Notes under the pieces: model-generated
The model's database searches: none
What the model was told of the DNA's origin: nothing
What the model saw: only the letters and a program-made list of their open reading frames with translations
In this document: in pieces, positions 3,001 through 19,824 of the stretch
Numbering within the stretch: the first letter of the stretch is position 1
How the letters are laid out: the number at the start of each line of letters is the position of its first letter
Program-made: the position numbers and the translations under genes
Origin: Escherichia coli
GTDB taxonomy: Bacteria > Pseudomonadota > Gammaproteobacteria > Enterobacterales > Enterobacteriaceae
Assembly: GCF_030013205.1 (NCBI RefSeq)
Contig: NZ_CP122648.1
DNA length: 64,000 nt
Reading direction: 5' to 3' (one strand)

Positions 3001-4087
3001 CAGGCTGCCAGGCTACTGTAGGTTGCGAAGGTGGAACATCAACAGAGGCAACAGGCGGCGTCTGAGTCACAGGTTCAACCGGCGCAGCCCAGCTTTGTGT
3101 CGCCGTGGTAGCAGCAGCTGCTACAGCAACAGGTTCGGTAATTGGCGCACCATTTAATAATGGATCGTATTCGTCATATTCTGGCTGCGTTGCACGATTG
3201 CCCGAAAAGAGGACGTCGTCAGGGTCGGCAGCCACACCGCGTGCAGTGTAGGTAATCTCTTCGTCATCATCCATCCGCTTACCGGAGAACAACGCAGCGT
3301 CTGTTTGCCGCCCCATCGGATTAATGAATTTTTCCGCCAACCGTTTACGACGCGCTAACGCGCCGCGAAGAATACGGGCACGGCGTGATTCATGCTGTTT
3401 GCCGTGATTTTCATCTTCATACTCTTCGTCATCTTCATACTCATCTTCATCGACCCAGGTATCATCGCGACGGGTACGATTACTGGCGAAGGTGAGAATG
3501 TTTAAAATCCAGCCGCCGAGTTTTTCAGCAATGGTCACCCATGACCAACCGGTGAACAGCGTCAGACCCGCAGCCCAAACGCAGAGCAGCGCAATAGTTC
3601 CCCCGCTACTGTGTAGCAGTGGTTGTAGCGTAGTGCTTAGTAAGCTGCCAATGACGCCACCGGAGGCAAAATACCAGATATCGTCAGCGTTGATTGCCGC
3701 CAGACCACAGGAGGTAAGGATGAGCGCCAAAACGCCAATGATGCGTAGCGAAACGGCAAAATAATCAATGTATTCGTCGCTGGACTGATGACGCCAGGCA
3801 AACCAACAACCGCCGACAATAATGACGGGAATGGTGTAAGCCATCACGCCAAAAATAAAGAACAGCGTATCTGCCAGCCACGCACCGGGCATCCCACCTA
3901 AATTATGGATAGGTTCATGCCAGGCCGTTTGCGACCAGCTGGGGTCCGAAGGGTTAAAGCTTAGTAAGGCAGCCATCAACCAGACGGCAAACAGGACAAT
4001 AAGGATCAGCAACGCCTCCAGAAGGCGGCGGCCGCTACTTAACTTTGTCAATGTGACTTCTTTGTCTTCAGTGTATTCCTGGCTCAA
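20..4087 (-). CDS. ftsK: DNA translocase FtsK
   Basis: 1355 aa ORF; N-terminal membrane domain, long PQ-rich linker, C-terminal Walker A (GTTGSGKS) motor domain; matches K-12 FtsK from memory. Confidence 0.95.
1565..1800. repeat. In-frame 39 bp tandem repeats in the ftsK linker (13 aa units of the type [13 protein letters not shown])
   Basis: Visible period-39 repetition of ggctgctgatactgcggctgcggtgcaaccggttgttgt and near-copies. Confidence 0.8.
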
Positions 4088-4221
4088 GAAAGGCTCTCCA
4101 GGTTACAGGCTTTTCCTGCCCGATGCTAAAACGGACAACAGTACCAGGTTACCCCAGTACTGTTGCTGTATGGATTAACAGGAGTGTAATCAAAATACGC
4201 CGATTTTGCACCTGTTCCGTG

Positions 4222-6347: not shown

Positions 6348-8114
6348 ATGAATAAATCCCGTCAAAAAGAGTTAACCCGCTGGTTAAAACAGCAAAGCGT
6401 CATCTCCCAACGTTGGCTGAATATTTCTCGTCTGCTGGGCTTTGTGAGCGGCATATTGATCATTGCCCAAGCCTGGTTCATGGCGCGAATTCTGCAACAT
6501 ATGATTATGGAGAATATTCCCCGTGAAGCCCTGCTGCTTCCCTTTACGTTACTGGTTCTGACCTTTGTACTGCGCGCATGGGTGGTCTGGTTACGCGAAC
6601 GGGTGGGTTATCACGCCGGGCAGCATATCCGCTTTGCCATCCGCCGTCAGGTTCTCGACCGTCTGCAACAAGCAGGGCCAGCGTGGATTCAGGGTAAACC
6701 GGCGGGGAGCTGGGCGACGCTGGTACTCGAGCAAATTGACGATATGCATGATTACTATGCACGCTACCTGCCGCAAATGGCGCTGGCAGTGTCGGTGCCG
6801 TTGCTGATTGTGGTGGCTATCTTCCCCTCTAACTGGGCTGCGGCGCTCATTCTGCTGGGCACTGCTCCGTTAATTCCGTTGTTTATGGCGCTGGTTGGAA
6901 TGGGGGCTGCCGATGCTAACCGACGTAACTTTCTCGCTCTTGCTCGCTTAAGTGGGCATTTTCTCGATCGCCTGCGCGGCATGGAAACATTGCGTATTTT
7001 TGGTCGTGGTGAAGCTGAAATTGAAAGTATTCGTTCTGCTTCGGAAGATTTCCGCCAACGGACAATGGAAGTGCTACGGCTGGCGTTTTTATCCTCCGGC
7101 ATTCTCGAATTTTTTACCTCGCTGTCAATTGCTCTGGTGGCGGTCTACTTTGGTTTTTCCTATCTCGGCGAGCTGGATTTTGGTCACTATGATACTGGCG
7201 TGACGCTGGCTGCGGGTTTTCTGGCCCTGATCCTTGCGCCGGAGTTTTTCCAGCCATTACGCGATCTCGGTACGTTTTATCATGCTAAAGCCCAGGCTGT
7301 TGGCGCAGCTGACAGTCTGAAAACGTTTATGGAAACCCCGCTCGCCCATCCGCAACGTGGTGAGGCGGAATTAGCATCAACCGATCCGGTGACCATTGAA
7401 GCCGAGGATCTGTTTATTACATCACCAGAAGGTAAAACGCTGGCTGGACCGCTGAACTTTACTTTGCCAGCAGGCCAACGTGCAGTGTTGGTTGGTCGCA
7501 GCGGTTCAGGTAAAAGCTCACTGCTGAACGCGCTTTCTGGTTTTCTCTCATATCAGGGATCGCTACGAATCAACGGGATAGAATTACGCGATTTATCACC
7601 GGAATCATGGCGTAAACATCTCTCCTGGGTTGGGCAAAACCCACAATTACCGGCAGCAACACTACGGGATAACGTACTACTGGCACGACCTGATGCCAGC
7701 GAACACGAGTTACAAACAGCGCTGGATAACGCCTGGGTCAGTGAGTTTCTACCGCTCCTGCCACAAGGCGTTGATACGCCTGTTGGCGACCAGGCTGCCC
7801 GCCTTTCCGTGGGGCAGGCACAGCGCGTGGCGGTGGCCCGAGCATTACTAAATCCCTGTTCGCTATTACTGTTGGATGAACCCGCTGCCAGCCTTGATGC
7901 TCACAGTGAACAGCGCGTAATGGAGGCGCTTAATGCCGCCTCTCTGCGCCAGACAACGTTAATGGTCACCCACCAGTTAGAAGATCTTGCTGACTGGGAT
8001 GTCATTTGGGTAATGCAGGATGGTCAGATTATTGAGCAAGGACGTTACGCGGAATTAAGTGTGGCTGGTGGCCCATTCGCCACATTACTGGCCCATCGTC
8101 AGGAGGAGATTTAA
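6348..8114 (+). CDS. cydD: Glutathione/cysteine ABC exporter CydD
   Basis: 588 aa, TMD plus ABC ATPase (GRSGSGKSS, LSVGQAQR). Confidence 0.95.
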   Translation: MNKSRQKELTRWLKQQSVISQRWLNISRLLGFVSGILIIAQAWFMARILQHMIMENIPREALLLPFTLLVLTFVLRAWVVWLRERVGYHAGQHIRFAIRRQVLDRLQQAGPAWIQGKPAGSWATLVLEQIDDMHDYYARYLPQMALAVSVPLLIVVAIFPSNWAAALILLGTAPLIPLFMALVGMGAADANRRNFLALARLSGHFLDRLRGMETLRIFGRGEAEIESIRSASEDFRQRTMEVLRLAFLSSGILEFFTSLSIALVAVYFGFSYLGELDFGHYDTGVTLAAGFLALILAPEFFQPLRDLGTFYHAKAQAVGAADSLKTFMETPLAHPQRGEAELASTDPVTIEAEDLFITSPEGKTLAGPLNFTLPAGQRAVLVGRSGSGKSSLLNALSGFLSYQGSLRINGIELRDLSPESWRKHLSWVGQNPQLPAATLRDNVLLARPDASEHELQTALDNAWVSEFLPLLPQGVDTPVGDQAARLSVGQAQRVAVARALLNPCSLLLLDEPAASLDAHSEQRVMEALNAASLRQTTLMVTHQLEDLADWDVIWVMQDGQIIEQGRYAELSVAGGPFATLLAHRQEEI

Positions 8115-9836
8115 ATGCGCGCTTTGCTACCCTATCTGGCACTGTATAAACGTCATAAATGGATGTTAAGTCTTGGTATTGTGCTGGCAATTGTCACGCT
8201 GCTCGCCAGTATCGGTCTGTTGACACTTTCCGGCTGGTTCCTCTCGGCCTCAGCGGTAGCGGGGGTTGCCGGACTGTACAGCTTCAACTATATGCTACCC
8301 GCTGCGGGCGTGCGTGGTGCAGCAATCACCCGTACTGCCGGGCGCTATTTTGAACGTCTGGTAAGTCACGACGCGACTTTCCGCGTGTTGCAGCATCTGC
8401 GCATTTATACCTTCAGCAAATTGCTGCCCCTCTCCCCTGCAGGACTGGCGCGCTATCGTCAGGGCGAATTGCTCAACCGCGTGGTGGCGGATGTTGATAC
8501 GCTCGATCATCTTTACCTGCGCGTTATCTCGCCGCTGGTGGGCGCTTTTGTGGTGATTATGGTGGTGACAATCGGGTTAAGTTTCCTTGATTTCACCCTC
8601 GCCTTTACGCTGGGCGGCATTATGTTACTGACGCTTTTCCTGATGCCACCACTGTTTTATCGTGCGGGGAAAAGCACCGGGCAAAATCTGACTCATCTTC
8701 GCGGGCAGTATCGCCAACAACTGACGGCCTGGCTGCAAGGGCAAGCTGAGCTGACCATTTTTGGTGCCAGCGATCGTTATCGCACGCAGTTAGAGAATAC
8801 CGAAATTCAGTGGCTGGAAGCGCAACGTCGTCAATCTGAACTCACCGCATTATCGCAAGCGATAATGCTGCTCATTGGCGCGTTAGCGGTGATCCTGATG
8901 CTGTGGATGGCGTCTGGCGGCGTTGGCGGCAATGCTCAACCCGGCGCGTTAATTGCCCTGTTTGTCTTCTGCGCGTTAGCCGCGTTTGAAGCACTGGCAC
9001 CAGTAACGGGTGCATTTCAGCATCTGGGGCAAGTCATTGCCTCTGCCGTACGGATCACTGACTTAACGGTTCAAAAACCGGAAGTCACCTTCCCTGATAC
9101 CCAAACTCGTGTTGCCGATCGCGTTTCGCTGACGTTACGGGATGTTCAATTCACTTATCCGGAGCAATCCCAACAGGCACTTAAAGGGATTTCTCTTCAG
9201 GTAAACGCCGGGGAACATATAGCGATTCTCGGGCGAACCGGATGCGGCAAATCAACACTGTTACAACTGCTGACCCGCGCATGGGACCCGCAACAAGGCA
9301 AGATTTTGCTTAACGATAGCCCCATAGCCAGCCTGAATGAAGCGGCTCTACGACAGACCATCAGCGTTGTTCCTCAGCGAGTGCATCTGTTTAGCGCCAC
9401 GCTGCGTGATAATCTGTTACTCGCCTCACCTGGCAGTAGTGATGAGGCTCTGGCGGAGATCTTGCGTCGCGTTGGTCTGGAGAAGCTGCTCGAGGATGCA
9501 GGTCTCAACAGTTGGTTGGGTGAAGGCGGACGCCAGCTCTCCGGTGGTGAACTGCGCCGTCTGGCTATCGCCCGTGCGCTGTTACATGATGCGCCGCTGG
9601 TATTGCTGGATGAACCTACAGAAGGCTTAGATGCCACAACCGAAAGTCAGATCCTTGAATTGCTTGCAGAAATGATGCGTGAGAAAACGGTGTTAATGGT
9701 CACCCATCGACTTCGCGGACTCTCTCGTTTCCAACAAATAATAGTGATGGACAACGGGCAAATTATTGAGCAAGGTACTCACGCAGAACTGCTTGCCAGA
9801 CAGGGGCGTTATTACCAGTTCAAGCAGGGTTTGTAA
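8115..9836 (+). CDS. cydC: Glutathione/cysteine ABC exporter CydC
   Basis: 573 aa, TMD plus ABC ATPase (GRTGCGKST, LSGGELRR); start abuts cydD stop. Confidence 0.95.
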   Translation: MRALLPYLALYKRHKWMLSLGIVLAIVTLLASIGLLTLSGWFLSASAVAGVAGLYSFNYMLPAAGVRGAAITRTAGRYFERLVSHDATFRVLQHLRIYTFSKLLPLSPAGLARYRQGELLNRVVADVDTLDHLYLRVISPLVGAFVVIMVVTIGLSFLDFTLAFTLGGIMLLTLFLMPPLFYRAGKSTGQNLTHLRGQYRQQLTAWLQGQAELTIFGASDRYRTQLENTEIQWLEAQRRQSELTALSQAIMLLIGALAVILMLWMASGGVGGNAQPGALIALFVFCALAAFEALAPVTGAFQHLGQVIASAVRITDLTVQKPEVTFPDTQTRVADRVSLTLRDVQFTYPEQSQQALKGISLQVNAGEHIAILGRTGCGKSTLLQLLTRAWDPQQGKILLNDSPIASLNEAALRQTISVVPQRVHLFSATLRDNLLLASPGSSDEALAEILRRVGLEKLLEDAGLNSWLGEGGRQLSGGELRRLAIARALLHDAPLVLLDEPTEGLDATTESQILELLAEMMREKTVLMVTHRLRGLSRFQQIIVMDNGQIIEQGTHAELLARQGRYYQFKQGL

Positions 9837-14196: not shown

Positions 14197-14517
14197 TCAG
14201 GCTTTTTCTAGCGTACACAGCAATGGATGCTCATTCTCCCTCGCGTACTTGTTCACCATCGCCACTTTGGTTTCTGCAACCTCGGCGGTAAAGACTCCGC
14301 AAATGGCCTTCCCCTGGTAGTGAACAGCGAGCATCAATTGCGTTGCACGTTCTACATCATAAGAAAAGAATTTTTGTAACACGTCAATAACAAACTCCAT
14401 CGGAGTGTAATCATCATTGACTAATATCACTTTATACATAGATGGCGGTTTTAGCGCGTCGCGAACTTTTTCTTCCGCCAGTTGATCAAAGTCCAGCCAG
14501 TCGTTCGTTTTACCCAT
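14197..14517 (-). CDS. clpS: ClpA adaptor protein ClpS
   Basis: 106 aa [51 protein letters not shown]... Confidence 0.95.
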
Positions 14518-14603
14518 TGTCAGTTATCATCTTCGGTTACGGTTATCGGCAGAACGCCCTGCCGCTGACAAGAGCTTATTTGCCTGACCAATCTACTCCA
14601 CAT

Positions 14604-14622
14604 GATAGATAACTATCATTTA
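14604..14622. repeat. Putative attL core (gatagataactatcattta)
   Basis: 17/19 identical to 25213-25231. Confidence 0.5.
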
Positions 14623-14691
14623 TATCATTTAGTTAATTAGTCTTTATTTTTCATTATGTTGCAAATAACAACCCCGTCAAAAACAGTGATA

Positions 14692-14714
14692 TTAACTACA
14701 CCATTAACTACACC
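14692..14714. promoter_or_regulatory. Putative integrase arm-type sites (ttaactacaccattaactacacc) followed by cgaacaa repeats
   Basis: Tandem 11-mer direct repeat; a near-identical copy lies at 25069-25091 just upstream of the int start. Confidence 0.45.
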
Positions 14715-15303
14715 GCTTCACGAACAATATCGAACAACCGCGAACAAAGATCAACACGCTTTAATCATTATCATTTTCCGGCTATCCGTCATGAAGCTGG
14801 TGGATGATCTGCGTGGTGATTTCCACCATTCAGAGCAGGGGCGGTCATCATGACCATGCCATAACAAAAACCCCATATTCGTGGTTTTTCTGTGTCGGGG
14901 CTATTCTGCTGTTGCCGTGCTGGTGGATATTCTCCGGTATGCGGCTCCCCATATCGGCATCAGGCCCACCAGCGTGAAGCGTTTTTCATTTTTCGCGGGT
15001 ATAAAAAATCGATGGGGCGGGCAGTCCTGAAGACGTCAGGGTACGGAGATTTGACCCGCCCCTCCCTGTGCATGAGCACAATAAGTAACCGAAGGCGGAA
15101 TTCCGCCCTCGGTACTTACATATGAGAAACGATATTTCTTCCACCGATACCCTTTATTTGGGTATTGCGAGTAAGCCCCAAAATCTGGGTGTTACTCTTA
15201 CTACCCAAACTACGGGTAGTTTCCGTAGTTTCATGGTCGAGTTGCAAATCTGCAACTCACCCACCAGCCAACGCAATTTTGCGTTATCGGGAATATCAGC
15301 AAG

Positions 15304-15591
15304 TTACCGCCGCAGTCGTTCCGGCTTCTTCCACTGGTAAGTATTTTTCGCGCTCTCCCTCCGTTGTTGAGAACGGCGACGGTATGCCAGCAACTCAAGG
15401 ACTCTGGTTCGTATGTTGCGCATATCCACGCCGTTAAGCTCAATACCATCACGGCGCATCACCTCAGCAACAACACGCGCGTAATTTTCAGCGGTGACTG
15501 TATCCGGCTGCGCGGCCTGTTCGTCAGCCAACTGGCTGATTCCACCAGCACAGCGGATTAATCGCAGTATTTCAGATTCGGTCATTATCAT
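15304..15591 (-). CDS. Hypothetical protein (95 aa), island packaging module
   Basis: ORF overlaps the terS-like stop by 4 nt; no recognisable motif. Confidence 0.45.
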   Translation of the reverse strand: MIMTESEILRLIRCAGGISQLADEQAAQPDTVTAENYARVVAEVMRRDGIELNGVDMRNIRTRVLELLAYRRRSQQRRESAKNTYQWKKPERLRR

Positions 15592-16073
15592 GCCTGTTTT
15601 GCGACCTCATTCACTACGTCATTTTTTACCATCCGGCTGATAATCTGATTACACAAATCGTCAATAATTGACTGCACTCTGTTTACTGCCATCGGTTTAA
15701 GCCCGGCATCACGTGCCAGAATATTGGGGAGTTTTGCCAGTTCCTCGCTTACGATTTCCCCCCATATAGCCATCTCTTTTCGCACATCATCGGCGGGTAT
15801 GAGTTGCGCCGTTTCCTGTTCGAACTTGAGGCGTTCACGTTCGGACTGATACCAGGCCTTACGGTCTTGTGGCTCCATTTCTTCCAGTGATGCCGGAACG
15901 GGAAGATCAAGAAAACAGGTCAGAATGTCAGTCACCCGATAGAGTTTCAGCTTGTCATGCCCTCCGGCTGGCTGGATGTTTTTCAGCCTTGCCGCCGCAG
16001 TCTGACGACATATTCCCGCTATCGCCGCCAGTTGATTAATGTTCAGCATCAGATTTTTCAGTTCTCGATCCAT
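15588..16073 (-). CDS. Phage small terminase-like protein (Nu1-like HTH DNA-packaging protein)
   Basis: Start placed at MDRELKNLM (GGAGCGGGT SD); N-terminal HTH LNINQLAAIAGICRQTAAARL; layout resembles lambda Nu1. Confidence 0.55.
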   Translation of the reverse strand: MDRELKNLMLNINQLAAIAGICRQTAAARLKNIQPAGGHDKLKLYRVTDILTCFLDLPVPASLEEMEPQDRKAWYQSERERLKFEQETAQLIPADDVRKEMAIWGEIVSEELAKLPNILARDAGLKPMAVNRVQSIIDDLCNQIISRMVKNDVVNEVAKQA

Positions 16074-16226
16074 ACCCGCTCCAGAATGTTTTAAACATGC
16101 ATCTTGCGAACAACTTTCAGAAGAGGTCAAAAAATGCGCTATATGTTGAGCATAAAACAAGCAAAATTAACATGCCAAAAATAAAAATACTTAAAATTCA
16201 ATACAATATGAAGATGATGATGACGA

Positions 16227-16306
16227 ATGAAAATGCAAAAACTAGCCTTTTTCCGCGCCGCTCCCGCCCCGTGGCAGACCACTCCACCGGGAGGACCCGT
16301 AAAAAA
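16227..16306. repeat. 80 bp conserved element, copy 1 (~92% identical to 18761-18840)
   Basis: atgaaaatgcaaaaac..ccgggaggacccgtaaaaaag; lies between the capsid terminator and terS. Confidence 0.8.
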
Positions 16307-16324
16307 GGCGGCTGTCGCCGCCCT
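16299..16324 (-). terminator. Rho-independent terminator after the protease-capsid gene
   Basis: Minus strand ggcggcgacagccgcc followed by ttttttta. Confidence 0.6.
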
Positions 16325-16329
16325 TGTTG

Positions 16330-18243
16330 TCATGCTCCACTCGATTTCAGTAATCCGCGATAATCGAGGGCCGCGACACCTGCATCTATGCGCACTTTCC
16401 AGGCGACACCATCAACAGTAAAGCCCACCTGCTCCTCAAGATATGGCGTATCCATACCATCAAGATAAGCGACTTCTATTGTGTCCATCCCCTTAGCTGC
16501 GGCTACATACCATTCCTTGCTATTGGCCTTATCAAGACGTGGCTCAACAATTACTTCTGCCATATCTTTCACCACGTTAATGATGCCGGGGTTCTGATTG
16601 ATAGTGCTCTCATCACCAACCGGAAAGACTGATGACGATGACAGAATGGCGCGACGCGCGGCAGATTCCAGCGCGGCAGGGACCAGAACAAAAGCAGGGG
16701 TAATATTCAGTGAGTCGCCGTTAGCATCCTCCTGGAGGCGCATCAGCTTACGGGCTTCATCAAGCCCCACCATGTCCATATCCTTCGCAATAAGATTTTT
16801 ATGATCGGCATGGAATAACGCTTTACCATCCGTAAATTTGCCGTTGCTGGTTAACAGAAGATAAACCAGATTACCTACTGTTCTGGCGGCCGCACGCCCC
16901 ATCGCCATGGGGATTGTAGTTAACTGGGTCAGGTCATCGTTGATAATGGCCTGACGGGTAACAGAAAAAATATTACCGTATGTGGCCAGCGCAATAGGTA
17001 CACCTTTATCGCTGGTGGTGATGTATTTATATTCCGCACCTTCCGGTACTTTATCCAGCTTTGAAAAACCATTCAGACCAACGCGCTTTGCTTCATGAAA
17101 GTTTGAAAGCGATCCGGTACGCGTCCATTTCTGGAACGTTTCGCCGCTGTCCTGCCAGCCTTTCAGCACTGATTTTTCAGCACCACCAGCCAGAATATGA
17201 GAAAAATCGCTGCTGCTGTGTGTGAAAGCTGCATTAACGACCTGCGAGCGATTTAAAAAACTGCCAACACTGATACCACGATCAGTTAGTGATGCCTGGG
17301 CCATTTCAAAAAGGCTCATCATCGCGTAAGGATTTCCCCGCTCTGGGCGTTCATACCCAAGACGAGAATAAAGCCCCTGACGAATTGCATCGCCTGTTAT
17401 GTTCCCGTTACCGGCATAAATATGAGTCGGGATATTTTTATTGGATGGCGTGGACTCGCGCCCCAGCTCGTTCAACAACTTTTCACGGGCCATCTCCGGT
17501 GTACATGATGCATCCTCCAGGCACGCCATTTTGATCCCGTCGTAACGACTGCCGAACAGGCTAAACACTTCACTTATTCCGTTGATGCGCTTCTGTTCAT
17601 TACCAGCAATATTGGCTGCTCCCTGTGGCGGGGTAATCATTCCTTTAATGGTTTCAGGCATGTGTGAAAAATCTCCTGTGCGTTTCGATTCAATTCGCGC
17701 CATTGCTGTGACAGATGGCAACAATTCATCAGCAAAACCGTGCTTAAGGCATTCTTTCCCGTCCATCCAGGTTTCATCTTCCAGCATGGCGGTAATTTCC
17801 TGTGCTGATTTGCCCGTTTTTCTGGCATAAGCAGGGACTAACACGGTTTCCACCTTATCCAGCAAATCAGCATAATCACGCATATCACCAGCATTTCCGC
17901 CAGAGATACCCCACGGCTTATGTATCATCATCATGGCGTTTTCCGGCATCACAACACGATCGCCAGCCATTGCGACAACCGAAGCCATTGAAGCCGCAAC
18001 ACCATCGATATAAACCGTAATTTCTGCCGGATGATTCCGTAACAGGTTATAGATGGCGATGCCTTCAAACACGTCACCACCTGGCGAATGGATCCGCAGG
18101 TCGATATGTGAGACATCGCCCAGGGCTTTCAGGTCTTCCGCAAACTGCTTCGCGGTAATACCGAAGCCGCCAATTTCTTCATAGATGGATATTTCTGCCG
18201 CTCCGCGAACACCCAGCGCCTTAATGGTGTACCAGTGATTCAT
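16330..18243 (-). CDS. Fused prohead protease (ClpP-like) / major capsid protein
   Basis: 637 aa; N-terminal ~200 aa with ClpP-like serine-protease motif (IHSPGGDV); C-terminal ~430 aa of major-capsid size and character. Confidence 0.7.
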   Translation of the reverse strand: MNHWYTIKALGVRGAAEISIYEEIGGFGITAKQFAEDLKALGDVSHIDLRIHSPGGDVFEGIAIYNLLRNHPAEITVYIDGVAASMASVVAMAGDRVVMPENAMMMIHKPWGISGGNAGDMRDYADLLDKVETVLVPAYARKTGKSAQEITAMLEDETWMDGKECLKHGFADELLPSVTAMARIESKRTGDFSHMPETIKGMITPPQGAANIAGNEQKRINGISEVFSLFGSRYDGIKMACLEDASCTPEMAREKLLNELGRESTPSNKNIPTHIYAGNGNITGDAIRQGLYSRLGYERPERGNPYAMMSLFEMAQASLTDRGISVGSFLNRSQVVNAAFTHSSSDFSHILAGGAEKSVLKGWQDSGETFQKWTRTGSLSNFHEAKRVGLNGFSKLDKVPEGAEYKYITTSDKGVPIALATYGNIFSVTRQAIINDDLTQLTTIPMAMGRAAARTVGNLVYLLLTSNGKFTDGKALFHADHKNLIAKDMDMVGLDEARKLMRLQEDANGDSLNITPAFVLVPAALESAARRAILSSSSVFPVGDESTINQNPGIINVVKDMAEVIVEPRLDKANSKEWYVAAAKGMDTIEVAYLDGMDTPYLEEQVGFTVDGVAWKVRIDAGVAALDYRGLLKSSGA

Positions 18244-18449
18244 TGCTCCCCCCCAGATGCAAAACCATTCTTATCAAGCCACGCGTTAACCGCGTGTCTG
18301 ACAATCTGCGCCGCACCTGGTAATGGTTGGTCAGGATGATGATTTATGTGGTCGATCCTGTACTGCTTAAGGCGCATAACGGTCTGCGCATCCAGATGAA
18401 CGGAACCACCTTTTACCTCGCCTGTGTTCAGGTCGTTAATACAATTCAC
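18240..18449 (-). CDS. Hypothetical small protein (69 aa), translationally coupled to the capsid gene
   Basis: GTG start with AAGAGGAAG SD; stop overlaps the capsid ATG. Confidence 0.5.
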   Translation of the reverse strand: MNCINDLNTGEVKGGSVHLDAQTVMRLKQYRIDHINHHPDQPLPGAAQIVRHAVNAWLDKNGFASGGEQ

Positions 18450-18549
18450 AGTAACTTCCTCTTACTGACTAAACTGCGCGCATTATTGATCGATAAAAGT
18501 GGTAGATAAACATATTTCTATCATAAAAATAGATTAATCAGATTCAGAC

Positions 18550-18575
18550 ACAAAAAAGCCGGAGAGAATCCGGCA
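18550..18575 (-). terminator. Rho-independent terminator-like hairpin (gccggattctctccggc followed by T6)
   Basis: Minus-strand stem-loop plus U-run ~100 nt upstream of the 69 aa ORF. Confidence 0.55.
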
Positions 18576-18760
18576 TAAATATCCCGCCATCTGAACACGT
18601 TTTGCACAGGCAACTCCATCTGGCAGGTGAAAAACAAATTTATTTATATATTTCAATTAATTGCAAACTGGTCTAATGACAGGGAGAAAAAAATATTGTA
18701 CAGGTGAAAACAGAAATAACTTTTAATTATCAATAAATTACTACACATGCTGCCGCCGCC

Positions 18761-18840
18761 ATGAAAATGCAAAAACCAGCCTTTTTCCGCGACGCTCCCG
18801 CCCCGTGGCAGGTCACTACACCGGGAGGACCCATAAAAAA
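18761..18840. repeat. 80 bp conserved element, copy 2
   Basis: ~92% identical to 16227-16306. Confidence 0.8.
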
Positions 18841-18858
18841 GCCGGATTGCTCCGGCTT
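18833..18858 (-). terminator. Rho-independent terminator after the SSB-like gene
   Basis: Minus strand gccggagcaatccggc followed by ttttttat. Confidence 0.6.
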
Positions 18859-18872
18859 CTGTTACTCGTTGC

Positions 18873-19295
18873 TTAAAACGGTATGTTATCCCCGTACGGA
18901 TCATCATTTCCCGCCTGTTGTTTTGCTCTGCTCAGTGCATCAGTAGCCTGCCCCTGTTGGCCTTTTTTGCCGCCCGGTCGCGCCGTTCTCGCACTGATTA
19001 CGCTGTCTGCGATAACCTGCCAGCCCTGCCGCGTCTCCCCGTTCTGTCCGGTCCACTGGCTCACCTGCATGTTACCCGCCACGCTCAGGAGTTCACCCTT
19101 GCGGTGCTTTGCCAGTGCTTCGGCCTGTCTGCCAAACGCCAGGACGGATAACCACATCGTCGCCGTTCCGTCATCTGCCTGGCTGCACGGAAGTGGGACC
19201 GCCATACTCGCCATCGTCATTTGTGTACCCTTGCTGGTGGTCTTTAACTGCGGGTCAGCCACCAGCCGCCCGTAAGCCGCTATCTGTGCTGTCAT
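18873..19295 (-). CDS. Single-stranded DNA-binding protein-like
   Basis: 140 aa; OB-fold-like N-terminus (GRLVADPQLK...), Gly/Gln-rich tail ending DDPYGDNIPF, resembling the SSB acidic tip DDDIPF. Confidence 0.65.
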   Translation of the reverse strand: MTAQIAAYGRLVADPQLKTTSKGTQMTMASMAVPLPCSQADDGTATMWLSVLAFGRQAEALAKHRKGELLSVAGNMQVSQWTGQNGETRQGWQVIADSVISARTARPGGKKGQQGQATDALSRAKQQAGNDDPYGDNIPF

Positions 19296-19537
19296 GCTGT
19301 CTGCTCTCCGGTTTTAACGTTGATGGTTGTCACCTGTTCCGCTTCGGCAATCTCCCGTTCTGTCAGCGTGGCAAAGTTTGCAGCTGCCGTTGTCATGAAT
19401 GAGCTAATCAGTTCGGGATGTGCTTTCGCATATCCTTCCCCGGCGTTGCGGTCGATGATTTTTATCGACACCCTTAACCAGTGTTCCGTCAAATCAAGGG
19501 CGTGCGATTGTGATTTTTTTGTGTGCTTCGCTGTCAT
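19292..19537 (-). CDS. Hypothetical protein (81 aa)
   Basis: ORF between the ori and the SSB-like gene; overlaps the ssb start by 4 nt. Confidence 0.45.
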   Translation of the reverse strand: MTAKHTKKSQSHALDLTEHWLRVSIKIIDRNAGEGYAKAHPELISSFMTTAAANFATLTEREIAEAEQVTTINVKTGEQTA

Positions 19538-19584
19538 AGGCTTTATCTCACAGCAGTAAATTAAAATTTTTGCGTTTTAACCCT

Positions 19585-19812
19585 TCACCTGTTCACCTTT
19601 TGATATTTTATCTTTTAATTCATAATGTTAAGGGGTGAACAGTTTCACAAAAACTATTCACCAACTGTTCACCACTGTTCACCCTTGAAGCTCAATAAAC
19701 AATCAAAAAGGTGAACAGTGAATAGTTTGGTGAACAGTTCATAAATAACTGTTCACCCTATAACATACTGATACAAAAGATATTTATGACAGGGTGAACA
19801 GTGGTGAACAGT
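19585..19812. promoter_or_regulatory. Putative replication origin: iteron cluster (at least 9 copies of GTGAACAG/CTGTTCAC) in AT-rich DNA
   Basis: Repeats at about 19587, 19634, 19665, 19676, 19710, 19729, 19750, 19794, 19803 in both orientations, immediately 3' of the primase gene. Confidence 0.65.
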
Positions 19813-19824
19813 TATTCCATAAGT

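Follow-up and report, generated by a model that had tools for sequence, protein, structure and literature searches.

Several satellite and phage systems provide the framework for reading the locus described here. The PICIs EcCIIHE3034 and EcCI18098 lie at cspD-clpS and have ATGATAGTTAT as their att core (Fillol-Salom et al. 2018, PMC6092414 Table S1). In a sibling element, EcCICFT073, overexpression of AlpA led to int-dependent excision, and the activity of a Pint fusion was unchanged by AlpA (PMC6092414). For helper-embedded PICIs (HE-PICIs), a doubled motif was proposed to bind four Int arm domains and was described by the authors as absent from other PICIs (PMC10111431). Excisionase (RDF) sites are usually direct repeats one helical turn apart, located at att and at controlled promoters (PMC7498355). 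Regarding the control of int, an int promoter overlapping an att arm is a common design (Panis et al. 2010, PMC2951348), negative autoregulation has been shown in KplE1 and predicted for 61.5% of tRNA-linked integrases (PMC2951348), and P4 Int is cited in PMC7286903 as repressing its own promoter.

The island and its recombination core

The window (the whole 64,000-nucleotide stretch of Escherichia coli DNA that was analyzed) contains a 10.6-kb phage-satellite island (PICI) between clpS and cspD, and the 19-mers at its ends are attL and attR. Considering that ATGATAGTTAT in PMC6092414 Table S1 is the reverse complement of ATAACTATCAT, the att site was already known.

14604 to 25233, no strand assigned: whole island, 10,609 bp from repeat start to repeat start
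Island genes, minus strand, in order: int, alpA, icd-like, DUF4222, D5-type primase, SSB, protease-capsid fusion, DUF1441
23806 to 25044, minus strand: int, P4-type tyrosine integrase (Pfam Phage_integrase 2.7e-18, Arm-DNA-bind_3 7.9e-17)

The gene organization is that of Gram-negative PICIs, with a one-directional int-alpA-...-pri module in the 10-15 kb range; the product of the capsid-fusion gene is a ClpP-protease/capsid fusion, and no tail or lysis genes were found among the island genes. Int is 77% identical to EcCICFT073 Int and 24% identical to P4 Int (E 5e-17). The 19-mers read GATAGATAACTATCATTTA (14604-14622) and GATAAATAACTATCATCTA (25213-25231), and no third match was present in the 64 kb with up to three mismatches allowed (chance expectation, 0.01). 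A sequence-only reading of this stretch had proposed that these att-like repeats bracket the island; all sequences that it quoted were found at the coordinates it gave, and the repeats proved to be the true island ends, as only a single copy is present in the empty site, which is smaller by exactly 10,609 bp. This empty site, from a K-12 derivative (L001), is 1392 bp long (12001 minus 10609) with a single core copy, GATAGATAACTATCATCTA, and alignment to the uninterrupted clpS-cspD site revealed that the insertion boundaries coincide with the 19-mers and lie nowhere else. The inner repeats proposed at the same time flank the core on both sides, and none of them occurs in the K-12-type empty site.

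The distribution of the island was searched with a 12-kb query (12,001 bp, island plus flanks) against 5,426 complete E. coli genomes. Results revealed that 51/5426 genomes contained 80% or more of this query and that nearly all of the others had the uninterrupted 1,392-bp site, while this int type was found beside yljB in about 365 genomes, as estimated from identity bands and among the matches listed. An O157:H7 element (L003, Z1615) has the same att site and arms, but its int and alpA are separated by one further ORF of 257 aa (8293-9066); it has no array of the class B type described below upstream of alpA, and its capsid/terminase module differs. Comparison of this element with the window island thus reveals a mosaic cargo, with the int-att module staying constant.

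Other repeats were also observed in the window. A 94-nt direct repeat (88% identical) occupies 16227-16320 and 18761-18854, and the copies come right after the minus-strand capsid-fusion and SSB genes, respectively; on that strand, both copies comprise a GC-rich hairpin and a T-run that are probably paired terminators, and each opens an unannotated plus-strand ORF at the first ATG of the repeat. At 19609-19826, a GGTGAACAG iteron cluster with 56-nt and 36-nt inverted arms lies directly downstream of the primase gene, the location reported for PICI replication origins (PMC10111431). A role of the end repeats as replication origin or packaging site was considered and rejected, because these repeats are centered on the crossover point and the iteron cluster is separate. 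An Rfam scan of the island returned nothing relevant, and the cspD leader and gene (25337-25737) matched the Rfam cspA thermoregulator below threshold (41.7 bits versus a gathering score of 78), as is expected of a paralogue.

14604 to 14624, no strand assigned: attL core, with GATAGAT at 14604-14610 (B half-site), AACTATC at 14611-14617 (overlap) and ATTTATA at 14618-14624 (island half-site)
25213 to 25233, no strand assigned: attR core, with GATAAAT (island half-site), AACTATC at 25220-25226 (overlap) and ATCTATC (attB half-site)
25225 to 25299, minus strand: yljB, small host gene; its stop codon is the complement of 25225-25227 and straddles the overlap/B' boundary
25152 to 25164, no strand assigned: A+T-rich block TTTATAATCAtag, conserved, with AATCA invariant in the P-arm alignment A1

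Judged from its letters, the core reads as a 21-bp site in which the 7-bp inverted repeats GATAGAT and ATCTATC flank the putative overlap AACTATC. Agreement with the empty site extends through 14619 in attL, which diverges after that position, and from 25218 rightwards in attR. In attL, core position 5 is the attB-type G and position 17 the attP-type T; attR is the reciprocal, with A and the attB C at these two positions, and the same reciprocal pattern was found in L003, L026 and L030. These polymorphisms indicate that attP is GATAAATAACTATCATTTA and that the exchange took place inside ATAACTATCAT. In this arrangement attB is GATAGAT, AACTATC and ATCTATC, where the outer 7-mers on either side of the central 7 bp are perfect inverted repeats, and attP is GATAAAT, AACTATC and ATTTATa. 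Relatives occur at three other sites, where the 7-bp overlap, in the same register right after AACACTAAnTGATAAA, reads TATGTCC (phoQ-roxA), TCACGAT (smrA-abgR) and TGCTGTT (tqsA), and in each case the predicted overlap falls within the attL/attR identity block of that class. The host gene yljB is intact at attR, with an identical RefSeq protein accession in the empty and occupied sites.

Moreover, the predicted attP junction GATAAATAACTATCATTTA was found, with the P and P' arms in one piece, in a metagenome contig (L026). This junction would represent the excised product, with a tandem array as another possible source. The contig (IMGVR_UViG_3300019373_000108; 10,780 bp) has attL and the clpS flank at one end and the attP junction at the other, an arrangement that points to islands in tandem or else to an assembly in which integrated and excised forms were merged. 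A circular sibling element (L067) with a 119-nt terminal overlap has its own attP. Most contigs from the IMG/VR scan with Int end exactly at the int start, without the P arm, and about 12 were informative.

The A+T-rich block at 25152-25164 is a weak candidate for an IHF site; relatives have AATCAAAAACATA at this block, one mismatch from WATCAANNNNTTR, and the window copy is poorer. In the rebuilt attP, the sole match to the IHF consensus at no more than one mismatch was TATCATTTAGTTA (14624-14636), beside the core, and a single match of this quality was considered too weak to serve as a basis for interpretation.

Two classes of arm repeat

The repeat search identified 66-nt modules at 14691-14756 and 25068-25133 that form a 73% direct repeat. 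The sequence-only reading had described mirrored arm-type repeats at both island ends; their presence at both ends was confirmed, but the modules are co-oriented direct repeats and not mirror images. It had also treated as one set what are two classes, of which the tandem 11-mers do fit the arm sites of P4-type integrases. Alignments of the arms of seven islands from four att sites revealed 74-82% identity with only the core replaced, and the blocks invariant in these alignments were the two ACTACACC units, the AACAA/GAACAA units, the AATCA block and the core-adjacent block.

14692 to 14714, plus strand: class A pair of the P' arm, TTAACTACACC a TTAACTACACC, at +78 to +100 from the overlap center
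25069 to 25091, plus strand: class A pair of the P arm, TTAACTACACC at 25069, then a, then TTGACTACACC at 25081, at -154 to -132 from the overlap center

Class A is TTRACTACACC in two copies with a 12-bp period, one pair per arm, with pair starts 232 bp apart, and the window contains exactly four copies (14692/14704 and 25069/25081). Within these copies, ACTACACC is invariant in the seven islands at four att sites while the spacers vary. We read class A as proposed integrase arm sites. The Int N-domain is suggested as the partner by the four half-sites, suited to a tetramer, by the fixed geometry and by a sequence that changes with the integrase. In the E. coli set, for instance, the 5' part of A changes from TTA to GTG only in the class in which the Int beta-strand SVRHSTxGLL is replaced by SVKYLTSGKL, and in that class AlpA and class B are unchanged. 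The doubled motif, again with a 12-bp period, was also found, with other sequences, in the following elements.

Klebsiella capsid-forming PICI (L009): TGTTTATACA, pairs 233 bp apart
Klebsiella phage (L094): the L009 motif, read on the int strand, pairs 234 bp apart
Phages 2H10 and cdtI: TTGTACATA, pairs 265 bp apart
P4: ATGCCCCC, pairs 209 bp apart

No doubled motif was seen in a Klebsiella prophage record (L091), in which the DNA some 135 bp upstream of int is already that of the host.

14721 to 14757, plus strand: class B array of the P' arm, CGAACAA three times (14721/31/41) and a degenerate TCAACAC at 14751
25098 to 25134, plus strand: distal class B array of the P arm, CGTACAA, CAAACAG, CGAACAA and CGAACAA at 25098/108/118/128, conserved blocks in alignment A1
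25191 to 25207, plus strand: B' pair beside the core, CGAACAC at 25191 and 25201
23177 to 23386, minus strand: alpA, winged-helix regulator/excisionase family (Pfam Phage_AlpA, PF05930, 2.9e-16)
23510 to 23546, minus strand (gene strand): B-type array upstream of alpA, TAAACA, CGAGCT, CGAACC and CGAACAA with a 10-bp period

Class B is GAACA[AC] with a 10-bp period, in 4+2 copies on the int arm and three on the other arm, at offsets of -125, -115, -105, -95, -32 and -22 and of +107, +117 and +127 from the overlap center. Exact GAACA[AC] occurs seven times on the plus strand in the 297 bp of arms (14722/32/42, 25119/29 and 25192/202), versus 0.17 expected, with all spacings multiples of 10 bp, and the copies at 25098 and 25108 are degenerate. 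The AACAA/GAACAA columns are conserved in the P'-arm alignment A2, and AACACTAAnTGATAAA, which adjoins the B' pair, is conserved in all four att classes (alignment A1). These arrays comprise at least three direct repeats about one helical turn apart in an element that encodes an excisionase-family protein, AlpA, which is 42% identical to P4 Vis (alignment A3). In relatives, B-type units are likewise located upstream of alpA (five phased units, right after int, in EcCICFT073 and about 15 in L009). In addition, the two variants of the motif, CGAACA and TG[A/G]AACA, switch in concert at the three locations, in line with the class of AlpA.

We read class B as proposed AlpA (excisionase-type) sites. 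The sequence-only reading had assigned the CGAACAA repeats to Int; AlpA is the likelier partner, given that the same motif stands upstream of alpA and that its variant tracks the AlpA class. That AlpA left the Pint fusion of EcCICFT073 unaffected counts against the scheme, as B arrays are present in that int arm, but AlpA acting directly at the arms would fit both the excision obtained with AlpA and the unchanged Pint fusion. The covariation of Int and AlpA with the motifs was seen in three lineages only, and since Int, the arms and alpA are physically linked, shared ancestry could also yield this pattern.

A very long array of this period was observed in the Klebsiella cf-PICI vB_KppS-Ant (L009) at 7130-7340, between int and alpA, where about 10 units (variants of CATTCAACAG and CACGTAACGA among them) precede some six TGTTCAT units in inverted orientation. 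Shared Vis sites in P4 were sought as a parallel and found no support: the 10-bp "ori type 2" repeats upstream of vis read CACTTAAAGN, unlike the GGAnnA triplet of the int arm.

The assignment of partners may instead be reversed or merged, with Int on the GAACA arrays and AlpA or another factor on the 12-bp pairs, or with Int on both. In favor of this, GAACA arrays are found on both arms with a 10-bp spacing like that of the tandem lambda P' sites (P'1-P'3). Linkage confounds the covariation of Int and AlpA with the motifs, and the HE-PICI authors left it undecided whether Int or AlpA binds the doubled motif (PMC10111431). Nevertheless, we consider a reversed or merged assignment unlikely: the P4 record labels the 12-bp pairs as arm repeats, the pair sequence is wholly different among integrases 24-48% identical to the island Int whereas a GAACA-like motif persists in L009, and GAACA arrays are also found 1.5 kb from the core, upstream of alpA, without an obvious role for Int.

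Slightly less probable again is that the GAACA arrays bind no island protein and that the phased AACAA tracts confer intrinsic curvature or serve as Fis, IHF or H-NS sites folding the arms. A-rich tracts at a 10-bp repeat are compatible with such a role, as is a motif core that stays similar despite diverged AlpA proteins (44-60% identical), but the motif flanks (CG versus TG[A/G]) co-switch at three locations per element class, which one sequence-specific partner fits better. Given the 73% identity of the 66-nt direct repeats, the island ends might also have been duplicated long ago, with the inner repeats as a leftover that has no function; this is very improbable, considering that the motifs are invariant and the spacers drift across islands at four att sites and that the geometry is kept in relatives with unrelated motif sequences.

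The int start and its control

The class A pair of the P arm had been placed 16 bp upstream of the int start, a distance that holds for the ATG at 25053 but not for the start at 25044 (MSRA...), which is conserved in relatives, was chosen by PGAP and lies 24 nt from the pair. The ATG at 25053, in frame, three codons upstream of 25044 and 15 nt from the pair, was observed only in the clpS-cspD class. Two alternative starts have been discussed for P4 int as well.

A scan of 24950-25460 for promoters gave no sigma-70-like candidate on the int strand in the interval from the core to int, and the only match was on the plus strand, upstream of cspD; the minus strand upstream of int, read by eye, has only poor -35/-10 pairs. 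No terminator was predicted on either strand in 24950-25460, and with none between yljB and int, read-through from yljB into int is possible. By analogy to P4, bound Int may autoregulate int, although the outcome of the promoter scan counts against it.

As seen at 25225-25299 and 14517-14604 on its two sides, the island also parts yljB from clpS, which lies downstream on the same strand. As yljB now points into attR and int, an effect on clpS or host-driven int transcription is possible. At the other end of int, a hairpin right after the stop codon (23767-23799; 16-nt arms, 81% complementary) is possibly the int terminator, and a 10-bp tandem at 23727-23746 (AGATATTTGC/AGATATTTTC) is possibly another operator.

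Proposed mechanism and comparison with known systems

With class A taken as Int sites and class B as AlpA sites, the following mechanism is proposed. A P4-family tyrosine integrase would integrate the island between clpS and cspD, at the yljB 3' end, with strand exchange in the 7-bp overlap AACTATC flanked by the 7-bp inverted core sites. Excision would join both island ends into an attP of about 300 bp, on which the four TTRACTACACC half-sites would be bound by the N-terminal arm-binding domains of four Int subunits, and Int on the A half-sites would bridge arms and core, as in P4 and lambda. AlpA would bind the GAACA arrays cooperatively, on both arms and upstream of alpA, bending the arms to favor excision and activating its own promoter. 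Int bound to the A pair nearest int, a mere 15-24 nt away from its start codon, would probably also damp int expression. We give a probability of about 0.7 to this scheme as a whole, that is, a PICI recombination site with Int on the A pairs, AlpA on the B arrays and Int damping int. The empty-site and arm alignments together with the L026 contig establish the boundaries, the core, the attP junction and the conserved architecture; which protein binds which repeat, and the autoregulation, are inferred.

A broader proposal, to which we assign slightly less than even odds, is that AlpA acts as the direct excision switch of Gram-negative PICIs on phased arrays and that the doubled motif is an integrase-specific arm code across the whole P4 family. 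AlpA induced by a helper phage would polymerize on the GAACA arrays at both att arms and at its own promoter. If so, one protein would couple self-amplifying expression with the remodeling of attL and attR for excision, which would account for AlpA-triggered, int-dependent excision without a change in int transcription, and the fixed geometry of the doubled motif would let the core be retargeted.

Comparison with EcCIIHE3034 and EcCI18098 was made by the table entry alone, which gives an 11-bp core only; these elements share with the present island the insertion site, the att core and the size class of 10.5-10.8 kb. Inverted half-sites, overlap and arm repeats, which do not appear in PMC6092414 Table S1, are described here for the present island, and the 21-bp core structure is new relative to published tables, which list the 11-bp core only. 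Also new, on a modest scale, are the division of the arm repeats into two classes, the generality of the doubled arm motif discussed below and a testable role for AlpA at the arms, which would explain how PICI excision starts.

The P4 attP (Pierson and Kahn 1987; features in NC_001609) is similar in several respects, including an integrase with an arm-binding N-domain, annotated tandem 12-bp "attP arm sequence repeats" at 3942-3965, 16 bp from the int ATG, a second co-oriented pair across the core at 4151-4174, an int gene reading away from attP and an encoded Vis/AlpA-family protein. In contrast to the island, P4 has the repeat ATGCCCCC instead of ACTACACC, pairs 209 bp rather than 232 bp apart, a tRNA-Leu gene instead of yljB as target (PMC7286903), an Int only 24% identical, additional inverted copies of the repeat where int begins and, at the place of the island's B array, no more than a loose 10-bp GGAnnA triplet. 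KplE1 IntS/TorI (PMC2951348) resembles the island in that int abuts its own att arm and that the sites for Int and excisionase overlap the int control region, but its integrase has an N-domain of another family, and for the island an int promoter in the att arm and such regulation are putative. The arrays of 186 Apl, P2 Cox and lambda Xis (PMC7498355) are likewise helical-turn direct repeats at att and at a regulated promoter; those of the island differ in lying on both arms, and their binding by AlpA is putative.

In the HE-PICI attP, two co-oriented copies of a tandem doubled motif with a 12-bp period lie 81 and 132 bp from the attP center (PMC10111431), compared with 78 and 132 bp for the near edges of the island A pairs; the HE-PICI motif itself differs, being TGTATTGC. 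The evidence indicates that the doubled arm motif is general and not special to helper-embedded PICIs, the layout being common to P4, classical PICIs, capsid-forming PICIs and some temperate phages. The base-level att map presented here, comprising core half-sites, overlap, four arm half-sites and phased arrays, may be of use for PICI annotation and engineering and leaves the current view of site-specific recombination unchanged: the island belongs to a known satellite family at a known site, and it is arranged in the usual manner of satellite phage P4.
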